This document shows positions 927 through 5,273 of a stretch of 5,273 bases of DNA, one piece after another. Below the pieces are notes generated by a model, which was not told where the DNA came from, did not search any database, and saw nothing but the letters and a program-made list of their open reading frames with translations. The DNA lies in the IMG/VR virus record IMGVR_UViG_2636415418_000002. One strand, written 5' to 3'. This DNA comes from a virus (lineage: Duplodnaviria; Heunggongvirae; Uroviricota; Caudoviricetes). A program made the translations under genes and the position numbers. Position 1 is the stretch's first letter; every line of letters starts with the position of its first letter.

Positions 927-1223
927 ATGAACGCTTATTACATTCAGGATCGTCTTGAGGCTCAGAGCTGGGCGCGTCACTACCAGCAGATCGCCCGTGA
1001 AGAGAAAGAGGCAGAACTGGCAGACGACATGGAAAAAGGCCTGCCCCAGCACCTGTTTGAATCGCTATGCATCGATCATTTGCAACGCCACGGGGTCAGC
1101 AAAAAAGCCATTACCCGCGCATTTGATGACGATGTTGAGTTTCAGGAGCGCATGGCGGAACACATCCGATACATGGTTGAAACCATTGCTCACCACCAGG
1201 TTGATATTGATTCAGAGGTATAA
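927..1223 (+). CDS. gam: Gam, RecBCD nuclease inhibitor (98-aa short form)
   Basis: The translation [21 protein letters not shown]...[10 protein letters not shown] matches, from memory, the C-terminal 98 residues (GamS) of phage lambda Gam. AGGAG at 915-919 lies 7 nt upstream of the ATG. Position immediately upstream of bet matches lambda synteny. Confidence 0.9.
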
Positions 1224-1228
1224 AACGA

Positions 1229-2014
1229 ATGAGTACTGCACTCGCAACGCTGGCAGGGAAGCTGGCTGAACGTGTCGGCATGGATTCTGTCGACCCACAG
1301 GAACTGATCACCACTCTTCGCCAGACGGCATTTAAAGGTGATGCCAGCGATGCGCAGTTCATCGCATTGTTGATCGTCGCCAACCAGTACGGCCTTAATC
1401 CGTGGACGAAAGAAATTTACGCCTTCCCTGATAAGCAGAACGGCATCGTTCCGGTGGTGGGCGTTGATGGCTGGTCCCGCATCATCAATGAAAACCAGCA
1501 GTTTGATGGCATGGACTTTGAGCAGGACAATGAATCCTGTACATGCCGGATTTACCGCAAGGACCGTAATCATCCGATCTGCGTTACCGAATGGATGGAT
1601 GAATGCCGCCGCGAACCATTCAAAACTCGCGAAGGCAGAGAAATCACGGGGCCGTGGCAGTCGCATCCCAAACGGATGTTACGGCATAAAGCCATGATTC
1701 AGTGTGCCCGTCTGGCCTTCGGATTTGCTGGTATCTATGACAAGGATGAAGCCGAGCGCATTGTCGAAAATACCGCATACACTGCAGAACGTCAGCCGGA
1801 ACGCGACATCACTCCGGTTAACGATGAAACCATGCAGGAGATTAACACTCTGCTGATTGCCCTGGATAAAACATGGGATGACGACTTATTGCCGCTCTGT
1901 TCCCAGATATTTCGCCGCGACATTCGAGCATCGTCAGAACTGACACAGGCCGAAGCAGTGAAAGCTCTTGGATTCCTGAAACAGAAAGCCACTGAGCAGA
2001 AGGTGGCAGCATGA
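1229..2014 (+). CDS. bet: Bet (Red-beta) single-strand annealing protein, 261 aa
   Basis: The translation [66 protein letters not shown]... matches lambda Bet as I recall it, with the same 261-aa length. The stop overlaps the exo start as ATGA, as in lambda. Confidence 0.95.
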
Positions 2015-2691
2015 CACCGGACATTATCCTGCAGCGTACCGGGATCGACGTGAGAGCTGTCGAACAGGGGGATGATGCGTGGCACAAATTACGGCTCGGC
2101 GTCATCACCGCTTCAGAGGTTCACAATGTGATAGCAAAACCCCGCTCCGGAAAGAAATGGCCTGACATGAAAATGTCCTACTTCCACACCCTGCTTGCCG
2201 AGGTTTGCACCGGTGTGGCTCCGGAAGTTAACGCTAAGGCGCTGGCCTGGGGAAAACAGTACGAGAACGACGCCAGAGCCCTCTTTGAGTTCACTTCCGG
2301 CGTGAATGTTATTGAATCCCCGATCATCTATCGCGACGAAAGTATGCGCACCGCCTGCTCTCCCGATGGTTTATGCAGTGACGGCAATGGCCTTGAGCTG
2401 AAATGCCCGTTTACCTCCCGGGATTTCATGAAGTTCCGGCTCGGTGGTTTCGAGGCCATAAAGTCGGCTTACATGGCCCAGGTGCAGTACAGCATGTGGG
2501 TGACGCGAAAAGATGCCTGGTACTTTGCCAACTATGACCCGCGTATGAAGCGTGAAGGCCTGCATTATGTCGTGGTTGAGCGGGATGAAAAGTACATGGC
2601 GAGTTTTGACGAGATGGTGCCGGAGTTCATCGAAAAAATGGACGAGGCACTGGCTGAAATTGGTTTTGTATTTGGGGAGCAATGGCGATGA
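2011..2691 (+). CDS. exo: Exo (Red-alpha) 5'-3' dsDNA exonuclease, 226 aa
   Basis: The translation [40 protein letters not shown]... matches lambda exonuclease as I recall it, with the same 226-aa length. The gam-bet-exo order is the lambda Red arrangement. Confidence 0.95.
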
Positions 2692-2846
2692 CGCATCCTC
2701 ACGATAATATCCGGGTAGGCGCGATCACTTTCATCTACTCCGTTACAAAGCGAGGCTGGGTATTTCCCGGCCTTTCTGTTATCAGAAATCCACTGAAAGC
2801 ACAGCGGCTGGCTGAGGAGATAAATAATAAACGGGGGGCTGTATGA
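2688..2846 (+). CDS. Small hypothetical protein (52 aa), positional equivalent of lambda orf60a
   Basis: Not in the ORF track. Hand translation gives [52 protein letters not shown]. Its ATG overlaps the exo stop (ATGA at 2688-2691) and its stop overlaps the next gene's ATG (ATGA at 2843-2846). Lambda likewise has a small ORF overlapping the exo stop. Confidence 0.5.
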
Positions 2847-3400
2847 CTGATTTCACCGGAAGCAATACTCCTGCCGAACATCGCGACAGCTGGCGCACAC
2901 CACCAGAGATTTTTGCTGCGCTTAATGCAGAGTTCGTTTTTCAACTTGATGCTGCAGCCAGCGAAAAAAACCGACTATGTCGGCTTTTTATCTCACAGGA
3001 GCAGAACACATTAACCACTTCATGGCCTGAAGCAATGGGATATGCCTCTGGTTATGTCTGGTTGAATCCACCATACAGCAATATTTCCCCTTTTGTGAAA
3101 AAGGCAGCCACTGAAAACAAATTCAGTAGTGTGGGATGTGTAATGTTATTGCCTGCTGACACATCTGTCGGATGGTTTCATGAAGCGATACAAACCGCCA
3201 GTGAGGTCAGATTCATCACGGCAGGACGACTGGCATTTATTAACCCACTCACCGGGAAACCCGTCAGTGGAAATAATAAAGGCTCGATGCTCATTATCTG
3301 GCACCCATACCCCCGTACACACTGCCACTTTACGACCGTTGATCGTGGAGAGTTGATGGCGTTCGGCTCAAGGATTCTTGCCCGTCGGGAGGCTGCATGA
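2843..3400 (+). CDS. Putative phage DNA N6-adenine methyltransferase (small Dam-like orphan MTase), 185 aa
   Basis: Contains the (D/N)PPY catalytic motif in WLNPPYSN, and an N-terminal WRTPPEIFAALNAEFVFQLDAAAS segment that resembles the WxTP...LDxAA signature I associate with the phage 'Dam' methyltransferase family (Pfam PF05869, from memory). No adjacent restriction endonuclease candidate is visible. Confidence 0.75.
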   Translation: MTDFTGSNTPAEHRDSWRTPPEIFAALNAEFVFQLDAAASEKNRLCRLFISQEQNTLTTSWPEAMGYASGYVWLNPPYSNISPFVKKAATENKFSSVGCVMLLPADTSVGWFHEAIQTASEVRFITAGRLAFINPLTGKPVSGNNKGSMLIIWHPYPRTHCHFTTVDRGELMAFGSRILARREAA

Positions 3401-3480
3401 CAACCACGGAATGCATTTTTCTGGCAGCGGGCTTCATATTCTGTGTGCTTATGCTTGCCGACATGGGACTTGTTCAATGA
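3397..3480 (+). CDS. 27-aa hydrophobic micro-protein (single predicted TM helix)
   Basis: Not in the ORF track. Hand translation gives MTTTECIFLAAGFIFCVLMLADMGLVQ*. A strong SD, GGGAGG (3386-3391), lies 5 nt before the ATG. The ATG overlaps the MTase stop and the stop overlaps the orf71 ATG, both as ATGA. Codons (ctg, gcg, ggc, gcc, gac) are better here than in the alternative long frame. Confidence 0.45.
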   Translation: MTTTECIFLAAGFIFCVLMLADMGLVQ

Positions 3481-3692
3481 CACCTCAGCAGGAAAACGCC
3501 CTTCGCAGCATTGCCCGTCAGGCTAATTCTGAAATCAAAAAAGCCAGACAGCAGTTTCCGGATAAAAACGTCGATGACATTTGCCGTAGCGTACTGAAGA
3601 AGCACCGCGAAACGGTAACGCTGATGGGATTCACACCGACTCATTTAAGCCTGGCGATCGGCATGTTAAACGGCGTCTTTAAGGAGCGATGA
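3477..3692 (+). CDS. Hypothetical protein, 71 aa
   Basis: ATG at 3477 overlaps the orf27 stop. Translation is MTPQQENALRSIARQANSEIKKARQQFPDKNVDDICRSVLKKHRETVTLMGFTPTHLSLAIGMLNGVFKER*. The track's 3378 start is a TTG and the in-frame ATG at 3411 lacks an SD and would overlap orf27. Product not recognised. Confidence 0.55.
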   Translation: MTPQQENALRSIARQANSEIKKARQQFPDKNVDDICRSVLKKHRETVTLMGFTPTHLSLAIGMLNGVFKER

Positions 3693-3784
3693 ACATGAAA
3701 AGCAAAATCATCAGGGAGCTACAGGCTCCTTTTTTATTATTCGCATTCACCCTCAAGCGTATTAACCAACAATTCAGGGATTAA
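3689..3784 (+). CDS. Possible 31-aa micro-ORF (uncertain: it contains a terminator-like hairpin)
   Basis: Not in the ORF track. Hand translation gives MNMKSKIIRELQAPFLLFAFTLKRINQQFRD*. Its ATG (3689-3691) overlaps the orf71 stop (3690-3692) as ATGA. A hairpin plus T-tract inside it is the competing explanation for this stretch. Confidence 0.3.
   Translation: MNMKSKIIRELQAPFLLFAFTLKRINQQFRD
3714..3741 (+). terminator. Terminator-like hairpin (GGAGC-tacag-GCTCC) followed by TTTTTTATTATT
   Basis: Seen directly: a 5-bp stem (3715-3719 pairing with 3725-3729), extendable by one G-U pair, then six T at 3730-3735. The stem is short, so this is a weak intrinsic terminator at best. It overlaps the orf31 candidate. 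Confidence 0.3.
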
Positions 3785-3790
3785 TGGAAG

Positions 3791-4009
3791 ATGGCAGACA
3801 TCATTGATTCAGCATCAGAAATCGAAGAATTACAGCGCAATACAGCAATAAAAATGCGTCGTCTGAACCACCAGGTTATATCTGCCACTCATTGTTGTGA
3901 GTGTGGCGATCCCATAGATGAACGAAGACGCCTGGCCGTTCAGGGTTGTCGGACTTGTGCAAGTTGCCAGGAGGAGATCGAACTTAAGAACAAACAATGG
4001 GGATTGTGA
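3791..4009 (+). CDS. TraR/DksA-family C4 zinc-finger protein (probable RNA-polymerase secondary-channel binder), 72 aa
   Basis: The segment CCECGDPIDERRRLAVQGCRTCASCQ shows the CxxC-G-x-P-I-x-E-x-R-R ... CxxC pattern characteristic of TraR/DksA. Its size matches TraR-like proteins of F plasmid and lambdoid phages. Only a weak SD (AGGGA) lies 10 nt upstream. Confidence 0.75.
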   Translation: MADIIDSASEIEELQRNTAIKMRRLNHQVISATHCCECGDPIDERRRLAVQGCRTCASCQEEIELKNKQWGL

Positions 4010-4056: not shown

Positions 4057-4335
4057 ATGTTCAGAATCATTTTTCCTAACACCTGGTACGTCGACCACCA
4101 CGGCACTCCCTGCAAAATCCTGCGTTCTACCCACAACAAAGTTCACTACATCCGAAAAGGCAGAACATGTATCGCCAGCATGTTCCGCTTTAATCATGAC
4201 TTTGAACCTGTGAATAAAGCTGATGCAGATCGGATAGCAGAAGAGATCGAAACGGCAGAACACATTAAGAAGTTACGTGACATGCGTTCAAAAAGCAGAG
4301 GTAACCATGGAATCATACAGCCTCACACTCGATGA
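4057..4335 (+). CDS. Hypothetical protein, 92 aa
   Basis: ATG at 4057 is preceded by GAGG (4046-4049) with a 7-nt spacer. Translation begins MFRIIFPNTWYVDHHGTPCKILRSTHNKVHYIRKGRTCIASMFRFNHDFEPVNKADADRIAEEIETAEHIKKLRDMRSKSRG.... Its 3' end overlaps the xis start by 29 nt. Product not recognised. Confidence 0.5.
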   Translation: MFRIIFPNTWYVDHHGTPCKILRSTHNKVHYIRKGRTCIASMFRFNHDFEPVNKADADRIAEEIETAEHIKKLRDMRSKSRGNHGIIQPHTR

Positions 4336-4657
4336 GGCCTGTCAGTTTCTCAAGATATCCAGACCTACCGCTACCAACTGGATACGAACAGGCCGCCTAC
4401 AGGCAACACGCAAAGACCCCACTAAACTAAAATCTCCTTACCTCACAACACGACAAGCCTGCATTGCGGCTCTTCAGTCTCCGCTGCATACTGTCCAGGT
4501 GAGCGCGGGTGATGGCATAACAGAGGAAAGAAAATGTCACTCTTCCGCAGAGGTGAAATATGGTACGCCAGTTTCACATTGCCGAACGGTAAAAGATTTA
4601 AACAGTCTCTTGGAACAAAGGACAAAAGGCAGGCGACAGAACTCCATGACAAGCTAA
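4307..4657 (+). CDS. xis: Excisionase, P22-type (116 aa)
   Basis: The translation [38 protein letters not shown]... has an excisionase-type winged-helix/HTH N-terminus and resembles phage P22 Xis as I recall it. GAGGT (4298-4302) lies 4 nt before the ATG. It sits immediately upstream of, and overlapping, int. The track start at 4277 has no SD. Confidence 0.8.
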
Positions 4658-5273
4658 AGGCTGAAGCATGGCGGGTCAGCAAACTTGGTGAAATACCTGA
4701 TATAACGTTCGAGGAAGCGTGTGTCAGGTGGCTTGAAGAGAAAGCACATAAAAAATCACTGGACGATGACAAAAGCCGGATCGGATTCTGGCTTCAACAT
4801 TTCGCAGGAATGCAACTAAGAGACATTACTGAATCAAAAATTTATTCAGCAATGCAGAAAATGACGAACCGGCGTCATGAGGAAAACTGGAAACTCAGGG
4901 CAGAAGCATGCAGAAAAAAAGGGAAACCTGTTCCAGAATACACGCCAAAACCAGCGTCCGTTGCAACGAAGGCTACGCATCTTTCATTTATAAAGGCCCT
5001 ACTAAGAGCCGCAGAGCGTGAATGGAAAATGCTGGATAAGGCACCAATTATTAAAGTGCCTCAACCAAAGAATAAACGGATCCGCTGGCTGGAGCCCCAT
5101 GAAGCACAAAGGCTGATTGATGAATGTCCGGAGCCATTAAAGTCTGTTGTTGAATTTGCACTGGCAACAGGGTTAAGACGCTCGAACATCATCAACCTTG
5201 AATGGCAACAAATAGATATGCAGCGCCGGGTGGCATGGATAAACCCGGAAGAGAGTAAATCAAACCGCGCAAT
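4534..5273 (+). CDS. int: Tyrosine integrase, P22-type (5' portion; 3' end truncated by the window edge)
   Basis: ATG at 4534 is preceded by GAGGA (4523-4527). The frame stays open to the window end (~246 codons): [53 protein letters not shown]...[20 protein letters not shown].... This closely resembles P22 Int as I recall it, and the TGLRRSN segment carries the first catalytic Arg of tyrosine recombinases. It is absent from the ORF track because there is no stop in the window. Confidence 0.9.

Follow-up and report, generated by a model that had tools for sequence, protein, structure and literature searches.

The phage-type Dam family of DNA N6-adenine methyltransferases (MTases) has been known since the Dam genes of phages T1, HP1 and VT-2 were cloned. 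M.HinHP1Dam, the founding member (orf13 of the P2-like Haemophilus phage HP1, 173 aa), is treated in the literature as GATC-specific and is encoded by the last gene of an early operon, downstream of rep and a MazG-like gene, away from recombination genes. The enzyme is cited as a Dam MTase of phage HP1 among the references of PMC7556043. GATC is also the known target of M.EcoVT2Dam (VT2-Sakai orf32, 175 aa; PMC6602927), which is found in many Stx phages and as ‘dam’ in SfI, and of the m6A enzyme M.EcoT1Dam (phage T1 gene ST20; PMC4996451). A fourth member, M.Btr190III, is only 35% identical to M.EcoT1Dam and methylated GATC when cloned, with substantial off-target activity (PMC4996451).

The other relevant system is the exo-xis region of phage lambda, which is transcribed from pL and is among the earliest regions expressed (PMC3824215, PMC8614690, PMC10869804). 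Its gene set is orf60a-orf63-orf61-orf73. Orf63 (DUF1382), a 63-aa helical protein, is reported to be a pro-lytic regulator, the deletion of which increases lysogenisation and decreases induction (PMC5575149).

We find that a 5,273-nucleotide stretch of DNA from a tailed phage, a lambda-like E. coli prophage (IMG/VR record IMGVR_UViG_2636415418_000002; the whole stretch is called the window below) contains a variant of this region and not the canonical set, since orf63 is absent and an ORF for a Dam-family MTase occupies its slot, downstream of gam-bet-exo-orf60a (Table 1). Homology to lambda is 97.8% across positions 845-2845, ends at 2845 and resumes at 3397 (97.5%, locally 99%). The MTase ORF is thus an exact ORF-for-ORF swap for orf63: the two have the same position and start-codon context and meet the downstream DNA at the same ATGA stop/start junction, but encode unrelated proteins. 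The left junction trims 8 codons from the C-terminus of the upstream gene, based on alignment of its translation to that of lambda orf60a. The G-run ahead of the MTase ATG is a possible Shine-Dalgarno-like element, and a nearly identical sequence precedes lambda orf63. The initial annotation had named an orf52 and described the MTase as translationally coupled to it and exo; orf52 is indeed a real gene, for a DUF1317 protein homologous to lambda orf60a, and the exo/orf52 and orf52/MTase junctions both have the ATGA overlaps by which such coupling could occur.

Table 1. Features of the window (all on the strand as presented; start and end positions are those of the window)
Feature	Position	Strand	Evidence and remarks
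gam, host RecBCD inhibitor	927..1223	+	PF06064, 214.8 bits
bet, Red-beta, RecT family	1229..2014	+	PF03837, 115.6 bits; 4-nt overlap with exo
exo, lambda exonuclease, Red-alpha	2011..2691	+	PF09588 (YqaJ), 104 bits
ATGA overlap, exo stop/orf52 start	2688-2691	+	Sequence reading
orf52, DUF1317, lambda orf60a homologue	2688..2846	+	PF07026, 117 bits; RefSeq ‘DUF1317 family protein’; 54 aa if the start is taken at ATG 2682
Terminator-like hairpin within the DUF1317 gene, ahead of the MTase	2752..2774	+	9 pairs, 6 of them GC; T-rich tail
G-run GGGGGG, possible Shine-Dalgarno-like element	2833..2838	+	Ends 4 nt before the MTase ATG
ATGA overlap, DUF1317 stop/MTase start; left cassette boundary versus lambda	2843..2846	+	...GGGGGGCTGTATGACTG...
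Phage Dam-family N6-adenine DNA MTase CDS	2843..3400	+	ATG to TGA, 185 aa; PF05869/TIGR01712
Codons for D36-A-A-A-S, motif-I-like, presumed SAM-binding	2948..2962	+	End of first beta strand
Codons for catalytic motif IV, N75-P76-P77-Y78	3065..3076	+	Direct sequence reading
ATGA overlap, MTase stop/next ORF ATG; right cassette boundary versus lambda	3397..3400	+	
orf61 homologue, downstream of the MTase	3411..3692	+	phrog_303, 123.8 bits; 93 aa from ATG 3411, as VT2-Sakai orf10 (RefSeq: 71 aa from 3477)
Strong terminator-like hairpin with T-run, after the orf61 homologue	3713..3731	+	Conserved in lambda
TraR/DksA-type C4 zinc-finger protein	3791..4009	+	PF01258, 35.2 bits; phrog_54
Excisionase, 116 aa, HTH_17	4307..4657	+	PF12728; phrog_2907 ‘excisionase’, 174.5 bits, full length
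Integrase 5' part, running off the window	4534..5273	+	PF00589, 52.4 bits; 124-nt overlap with xis; position agrees with the PhiR30_1 integrase

The zinc-finger ORF is probably the orf73 homologue, based on its position and on the label ‘C4 zinc finger protein’ that PMC5575149 gives to the orf73 homologue.

The product of the swapped-in gene is a member of the phage Dam family by every family model that it matches. It aligns with Pfam PF05869 (Dam) nearly end to end, over profile positions 1-168 of 169 (190.9 bits against a cut-off of 28.1, E=1.8e-56), and with the NCBIfam equivalog TIGR01712, ‘phage N-6-adenine-methyltransferase’, over positions 3-165 of 165 (168.2 bits, cut-off 97.05, E=1.1e-49), both well outside what chance would give; phrog_111 is matched as well. 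Two family alignments were made, of 29 and of 34 sequences, and each contained T1 Dam together with the nin-region Dam of SfI, the latter 98% identical to VT2 Dam. The NPPYS at residues 75-79 is invariant in both alignments; D36, A38 and A39 are invariant in the 29-sequence alignment and D36-A39 in the 34-sequence alignment. In the 29-sequence alignment 34 columns show no variation, and the window MTase retains every one of them (D36, NPPYS 75-79, R129, G143, N144, K146 and G147 among them). These include the N-terminal W-x-T-P and L-D-x-A-A (W17, T19, P20, D36, A38, A39) and the C-terminal G-R-x-x-F ... G-N-x-K-G loop (G128, R129, F132, G143, N144, K146, G147). By analogy with the general architecture of class-I MTases, we infer that the D36-A-A-A-S segment binds SAM. 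Thus, the earlier description of a 185-aa NPPY-motif MTase with a phage Dam-like N-terminus holds, as does the family assignment to PF05869 that it pointed to. No other Pfam family was matched at E<=0.01, so by sequence the protein is not a member of MethyltransfD12 (PF02086). Membership in MT-A70 (PF05063) was considered and rejected, since the motif is NPPY and not DPPW and there is no MT-A70 Pfam match.

The MTase is an orphan, as had been proposed. No restriction enzyme adjoins it, and the neighbouring ORFs of the window all belong to other families, the ones that matched a family being gam, bet, exo, DUF1317, the TraR/DksA zinc finger, DUF4222, xis and int. A PADLOC scan returned ‘orphan methyltransferase’ (oMTase) as the top match for the MTase (112 bits) and no restriction-enzyme match other than one of noise-level score (15 bits) on the TraR-like ORF. 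Similarly, PhiR30_1, the sole complete phage genome with the MTase gene, has no annotated restriction enzyme.

Among the described enzymes, M.EcoVT2Dam is also a PF05869 orphan of an E. coli lambdoid phage, of similar size (175 aa versus 185) and with the NPPYS and D-x-A-A-S motifs. The two proteins differ in 53% of residues, and M.EcoVT2Dam is encoded in the nin region on the rightward pR transcript, directly after ninB/orf, whereas the window MTase belongs to the exo-xis region on the leftward pL side, in the slot that orf63 still occupies in VT2-Sakai. M.EcoT1Dam, likewise an orphan of the family, comes from a virulent siphovirus and is larger: its 237 aa include ∼45 extra residues at the N-terminus and 14 inserted residues ahead of the conserved GRLAF segment. 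Unlike the window gene, the T1 Dam gene follows a helicase gene and lies between terminators. A nearer relative in sequence is the Dam domain (74% identical) of a C5-cytosine MTase::Dam fusion in Klebsiella and Enterobacter lambdoid prophages (for example phage CobraSix gp41, 637 aa). This fusion has the same early-left position as the window MTase, between the recombination module and TraR/xis/int, but its Dam part is the C-terminal third and follows a PF00145 C5-MTase, whereas the window MTase stands alone and starts at ATGA.

A sequence search of PDB chains, including E. coli, T4 and DpnM Dam, returned nothing at E<=1, and we therefore assessed the fold by prediction. The AlphaFold (AF2) model (pLDDT 78.9, pTM 0.78) has the class-I (Rossmann-like) SAM-methyltransferase fold, with a strand at E33-36 leading into the D36 segment, and it matches N6-adenine methyltransferase folds, so the methyltransferase fold called for by the initial annotation is present in the model. 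The 185-aa protein lacks a separate target-recognition domain. Its putative DNA-contact loop, residues 133-144, has low model confidence because the alignment used for prediction was shallow (homologues 66-84% identical). The alpha-class Dam enzymes of E. coli and T4 and DpnM (PF02086, ∼240-280 aa) belong to another family, with 4-10% identity to the window MTase in structural alignments, and carry a separate DNA-recognition domain.

The nearest structural neighbour of the model is PCIF1, the mRNA cap m6Am enzyme, which acts on RNA and not DNA; KsgA, Erm, TrmM and METTL16 also score, and METTL4 is a weak Foldseek match (E 0.14). These neighbours would fit a protein that does not act on DNA in the cell but methylates RNA, such as 16S rRNA, together with a small phage partner, and so tunes induction. 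There is a precedent in M.EcoPA8orf6770P (gene gp5 of Stx prophage PA8), a small prophage ‘DNA adenine MTase’ that, with a second phage protein, prefers 16S rRNA and raises spontaneous induction (PMC10810198), and the window MTase is tightly coupled to three small ORFs of no assigned function (DUF1317, a 27-aa ORF and the orf61 homologue). We set this precedent aside, since M.EcoPA8orf6770P is a partner-dependent MT-A70 protein with DPPW that is not homologous at the family level, whereas the window MTase is a PF05869 protein with NPPY. Moreover, methylation of GATC in DNA is reported for the PF05869 members VT2, T1 and Btr190III, for Btr190III after cloning alone, and DUF1317 and orf61 are not dedicated partners, because lambda has both in the absence of any MTase. 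We therefore regard action on RNA as very improbable.

Experiments on this exact protein were not found in the literature, and the target is judged from relatives. The window MTase is 47% identical to VT2 Dam (over 178 aa), 45% to T1 Dam (164 aa) and 40% to HP1 Dam (154 aa), while these three are only 33-38% identical to one another. The initial annotation held that the target motif could not be read from the sequence; we find instead that identities of 40-47% to three enzymes treated as GATC-specific make GATC a strong default. Since the window MTase is closer to each of the three than they are to each other, its target is most likely the adenine of GATC, although 45-47% identity is no guarantee of shared specificity. 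Base composition was examined for hints of the target and rejected as uninformative. No 4-bp palindrome is more depleted than GATC in PhiR30_1, which has the MTase (observed/expected 0.59), but GATC is equally depleted in lambda, which does not (0.55), so composition lends no support to a GATC target; the window has 18 sites versus ∼20 expected.

If the enzyme were not strictly specific for GATC, and instead recognised another short motif or was relaxed or promiscuous, it might give phage DNA broad protection against many restriction systems, the kind of role that the initial annotation put forward. Its small size without a discrete target-recognition domain would allow this, as would identities of only 40-47% to characterised enzymes. 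Promiscuous prophage m6A enzymes exist in other families (M.EcoGII and Hia5-type; PMC4996451, PMC6602927), and the C5-cytosine MTase fusion in Klebsiella/Enterobacter resembles a multi-specificity anti-restriction armour. Nevertheless, four members are reported to target GATC despite identities down to 33-38%, the window MTase is closer to each of VT2, T1 and HP1 Dam than these are to one another, and the family-invariant loop residues R129, G143, N144, K146 and G147 are all kept. We consider such a departure from strict GATC specificity unlikely, while giving it some weight.

Early expression of the MTase had also been suggested, and this receives indirect support from its flanks, both of which are 97-98% identical to the pL-transcribed lambda exo-xis region. 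By analogy with lambda, expression would be early and dependent on pL and antitermination. The hairpin within the DUF1317 gene, which probably corresponds to lambda tL3, sits in a lambda-homologous segment, and the record of phage O276 has a terminator under the same match. Because this hairpin is upstream of the MTase, read-through (antiterminated) transcription from pL would be needed. The record of PhiR30_1 annotates no N gene, so the antitermination step is proposed by analogy only. A promoter of the gene's own is unsupported, since a scan of the window found 5 sigma-70-like sites in total, versus 5.6 expected from shuffled sequence, and none on the + strand.

Taken together, we think it highly probable that the gene encodes a functional orphan SAM-dependent DNA N6-adenine MTase of PF05869/TIGR01712, likely directed at GATC, that is expressed early from pL and tops up methylation. 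In a lysogen, pL would be repressed and the MTase gene silent. Upon infection or induction, an antiterminated pL transcript would cross gam-bet-exo-orf60a into the MTase gene, and ribosomes that end orf52 at the TGA of ATGA could reinitiate at the overlapping MTase ATG. The enzyme would hold SAM in its Rossmann-type fold at the D36-AAAS segment and methylate a flipped-out adenine in the N75-P-P-Y78 pocket. This would raise GATC methylation on fast-replicating phage DNA beyond what limited host Dam keeps fully methylated, and leave no hemi- or unmethylated GATC on replicating, recombining and packaged phage DNA. The effect is likely to be quantitative, because the host already has Dam. For the same reason, the self-protection against host restriction put forward in the initial annotation is unconvincing if the target is GATC, as E. 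coli Dam already marks those sites; in that case, topping up the methylation of phage DNA is more plausible than restriction defence. Any advantage that the phage would draw from a second Dam where the host has its own is hypothetical.

The gene itself is already known, as an ordinary gene of the phage-type Dam family named by the NCBI pipeline. It is no discovery, because the identical sequence already appears in RefSeq (WP_032255841.1) under the name ‘phage N-6-adenine-methyltransferase’. Carriers number 312 among 5,426 complete E. coli genomes (∼6%), and 307 of the 312 have the gene at ≥99% identity. Counted by slot, the MTase occupies 316 places in E. coli and orf63 3,957, such that ∼7% hold the MTase. 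Prophages and phages of Atlantibacter, Klebsiella and Enterobacter carry a related clade, at 66-84% protein identity, in the same early-left position.

This distribution bears on whether the MTase is merely a passenger, a mosaic leftover without activity or benefit in a dispensable region. Lytic growth in the laboratory does not require the exo-xis/b region (PMC3824215), the slot mostly holds orf63, and truncated copies exist, given that 68 of the 312 matching genomes show coverage <80% and that a 148-aa partial form is on record. Against this stand the intact ORF of the window with all family-invariant residues, the conservation of the clade across several genera in the same position and the exact gene-boundary junctions that keep ATGA coupling at both ends. 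We give the passenger explanation almost no credence.

A functional MTase might also act as a modulator of development or recombination, through hyper-methylation of GATC in the earliest minutes of pL expression; this we consider distinctly doubtful. Members of the family in lambdoid phages are placed after exo (the window), after RecT/ERF/YqaJ (its relatives) or after NinB/Orf (Stx, SfI and Erwinia phages), and adjacency to recombination genes holds in the clade of the window MTase and among the nin-region members. As a family-wide rule it was rejected: helicase precedes the gene in T1, and rep and MazG in HP1; in Klebsiella phage VLCpiS13e the gene lies between terminase and portal; and in Pectobacterium phage Ymer the gene follows primase. 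Because these four break the rule, adjacency is kept just as a reading of low probability.

Host Dam is reportedly required for stable lysogeny of phage 933W (Murphy et al. 2008). If the modulator reading is true, the set-point of lysis/lysogeny or of induction would be shifted; alternatively, Red recombination intermediates would be hidden from MutH-directed mismatch repair and SeqA, and diverged lambdoid genomes would recombine more readily. That family members recur beside recombination functions in lambdoid phages would then reflect function and would not be incidental. The reported tuning of induction by orf63 itself (PMC5575149) would likewise fit the set-point version.

Whichever role applies, the locus is a clean case of lambdoid gene-boundary mosaicism, an ORF-for-ORF swap in which ATGA coupling is kept on both sides. 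In ∼6% of complete E. coli genomes the exo-xis region occurs naturally in this form, without orf63 and with a Dam gene, and this variant could serve as a natural experiment, both on the function of orf63 and on what a phage gains from a second Dam in a Dam-positive host.

The window corresponds to the early leftward operon of a lambda-like prophage, in which a gene for a phage Dam-family protein (MTase) stands where lambda has orf63 (DUF1382). The initial annotation had placed an orphan NPPY-motif methyltransferase here; indeed, we find one exact ATG-to-TGA frame of 185 residues, with NPPY at residues 75–78 (nt 3065–3076).

Features of the early left operon (window coordinates)
Feature	Position	Strand	Family match
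gam	927–1223
bet	1229–2014
exo	2011–2691
orf60a homologue (orf52, DUF1317)	2688–2846		PF07026, 117 bits
MTase	2843–3400	+	PF05869, TIGR01712
orf61 homologue	3411 or 3477 to 3692
TraR/DksA zinc finger	3791–4009	+
DUF4222	4057–4335
xis, 116-aa excisionase	4307–4657
int, 5' start	from 4534, to 5273 within window

The MTase matches the whole of the PF05869 profile, ‘DNA N-6-adenine-methyltransferase (Dam)’ (190.9 bits, cut-off 28.1, E 1.8e-56), as well as the NCBIfam equivalog TIGR01712, ‘phage N-6-adenine-methyltransferase’ (168.2 bits, cut-off 97.05), PHROG 111 ‘DNA methyltransferase’ and the PADLOC ‘orphan methyltransferase’ model. All invariant residues in two alignments (with 28 and 33 relatives) are retained, including D36 (segment L-D-A-A-A-S), N75-P-P-Y-S79, R129 and the loop G143-N-x-K-G147. 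Because no solved structure has detectable sequence similarity to the MTase, its structure was predicted (pLDDT 78.9, pTM 0.78) and searched by fold with Foldseek; the predicted model agrees with a methyltransferase fold, so the Dam-like assignment survives the fold check that had been put forward at the outset as a possible refutation. That the gene is an inactive passenger is extremely improbable, as its conservation speaks against this. It is also very unlikely that the MTase acts on RNA with a partner: partner-dependent RNA methylation has been shown for a Stx-prophage enzyme (PMC10810198), but that enzyme is of another family (MT-A70/DPPW), and the substrate of PF05869 members is DNA.

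Residues 12–92 of the MTase also match weakly PHROG 33262 ‘phosphoadenosine phosphosulfate reductase’ (PAPS reductase; profile 302–383 of 495, E 5e-7), and its N-terminal half matches phage genes annotated as PAPS reductase in ST64B and Flotzy. The lambda slot after NinB (L018 41081–41953) holds NinC, annotated as PAPS reductase, and the same slot in other lambdoid phages holds a PF05869 Dam, which suggests that some NinC-like proteins may carry a Dam-like segment.

Identity to phage lambda is 97.8% across 845–2845 and 97.5% across 3397–3986; homology ends right after a shared ATG and restarts at a shared ATGA, and the exchange of orf63 for the MTase reads as a textbook mosaic junction at gene boundaries. 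The proposed linkage to exo and orf52 is borne out by 4-base ATGA start/stop overlaps between exo and orf52 (2688–2691) and between orf52 and the MTase (2843–2846), with translational coupling itself predicted; a third joins the MTase to the next reading frame (3397–3400), and bet and exo overlap by 4 nt. In the literature this stretch is the ‘exo-xis region’, in which high conservation of orf60a, orf63, orf61 and orf73 is the norm (PMC3824215, PMC5575149), and deletion of orf63 increases lysogenisation and reduces induction (PMC5575149).

A scan of the window found no promoter-like sites on the + strand. Two hairpins resembling terminators (+), each with a T-rich tail, flank the MTase-orf61 segment: one at 2752–2774 inside the orf60a homologue, in lambda-homologous DNA and probably lambda tL3, and a strong one at 3713–3731 after the orf61 homologue. 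Across the window, terminator-like sites number 13, versus 6.4 in shuffled sequence, roughly a twofold excess. Given the internal hairpin and the lack of promoter-like sites on the + strand, MTase expression, by analogy with lambda, probably depends on antiterminated read-through from pL. Published accounts describe the exo-xis region as pL-transcribed, under cI repression in lysogens and ‘among the earliest genes transcribed’ (PMC3824215; PMC8614690, PMC10869804), and by analogy with this lambda counterpart the early expression first proposed for the MTase is likely to hold.

Downstream, a hydrophobic 27-codon ORF at 3397–3480 (+) (MTTTECIFLAAGFIFCVLMLADMGLVQ), identical in lambda, has ATGA overlaps with both the MTase stop and the ATG at 3477, the RefSeq start of the orf61 homologue; Pfam and PHROG searches gave it no family match. 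Because it overlaps, in another frame, the 93-aa reading of the orf61 homologue, just one of the two is likely translated. The 93-aa ORF is intact in the window (3411–3692) and in VT2-Sakai orf10, and lambda ‘orf61’ (61 aa, L001 2916–3101) has 7 As in an A-run that has 6 in the window (3537–3542); the reference lambda orf61 appears to be a longer gene that has been frameshifted. The excisionase ORF and the start of the integrase gene share 124 nt, a long overlap also seen in Klebsiella loci L009 and L010. In the E. coli 2016C-3878 prophage, whose MTase gene is identical, the excisionase annotation is limited to a truncated pseudogene remnant.

Pfam and PADLOC profile searches found nothing resembling a restriction enzyme within the window. 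Among complete phage genomes the MTase gene is confined to that of PhiR30_1 (99% identical here), which has a standard lambdoid gene set, a single PF05869 copy and no annotated endonuclease partner. As far as testable, the MTase is an orphan, as had been claimed. The TraR/DksA-type ORF matches the PADLOC ‘Type II methyl-directed restriction enzyme’ marginally (15.3 bits, E 0.0024), and we rejected a nuclease reading of this match as most likely shared zinc-finger noise.

The identical MTase gene occurs in 312 of 5,426 complete E. coli genomes, always on the chromosome, under the RefSeq name ‘phage N-6-adenine-methyltransferase’ and adjoining a ‘DUF1317 family protein’; the complete window arrangement is present in 228 genomes (∼98.6% identity). 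Since the orf63 allele fills this slot at 3,957 places in 2,936 genomes, the MTase allele is a minority (∼7%), and only one of 187 phage records with this backbone has it. In Atlantibacter, Klebsiella, Enterobacter and further Enterobacteriaceae, a 66–84% identical clade holds this early-left position; more distant PF05869 members follow ninB in Stx, SfI and Erwinia phages, and others lie in unrelated places (T1, HP1, Ymer, VLCpiS13e). In a Klebsiella prophage (L009 4690–6603) and Enterobacter phage CobraSix gp41 (L014 2133–4046), a Dam domain 74% identical to the MTase forms the C-terminal ∼190 aa of an uninterrupted 637-aa ORF whose N-terminal part is a C5-cytosine methyltransferase (PF00145 125 bits; PF05869 194 bits), a combination that points to a putative bifunctional m5C+m6A enzyme. 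In several database entries, just the last 200 aa of this fusion are given as a protein of their own.

The target, which was initially held not to be readable from the sequence, is quite probably GATC by default, because the MTase is closer to M.EcoVT2Dam (47% identity), M.EcoT1Dam (45%) and M.HinHP1Dam (40%) than these are to one another (33–38%). The HP1 enzyme targets GATC. The VT2 and T1 enzymes are treated in the literature as GATC-specific m6A enzymes (PMC6602927, PMC4996451), HP1 Dam is cited as a phage Dam MTase in the references of PMC7556043, and M.Btr190III, 35% identical to T1 Dam, methylated GATC when cloned and had additional off-target activity (PMC4996451). This precedent, the lack of a discrete recognition domain in the MTase and the joining of near relatives to a C5-cytosine methyltransferase would fit a different or looser specificity that provides genuine anti-restriction, which we consider rather unlikely beside GATC.

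In the literature, the part played by Dam enzymes that phages encode ‘is still not well understood’ (PMC7556043). GATC is strongly under-represented in the whole genomes of PhiR30_1 and lambda (observed/expected 0.59 and 0.55, Markov expectation), the depletion being the same with or without a Dam-family enzyme of the phage's own. If the target is GATC, the suggested self-protection against restriction by the host is a weak rationale, since E. coli already methylates GATC itself. Host Dam is limiting during lytic growth, which leaves the lambda DNA made then only partly Dam-methylated; fully methylated GATC resists MutH and is left unbound by SeqA. The most plausible benefit is thus quantitative: the MTase would complete GATC methylation on phage DNA that is fast-replicating, recombining or packaged. 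The MTase is an already annotated member of a characterised family, a correct but ordinary finding, and its position reflects nothing more than a mosaic variant that is less common.
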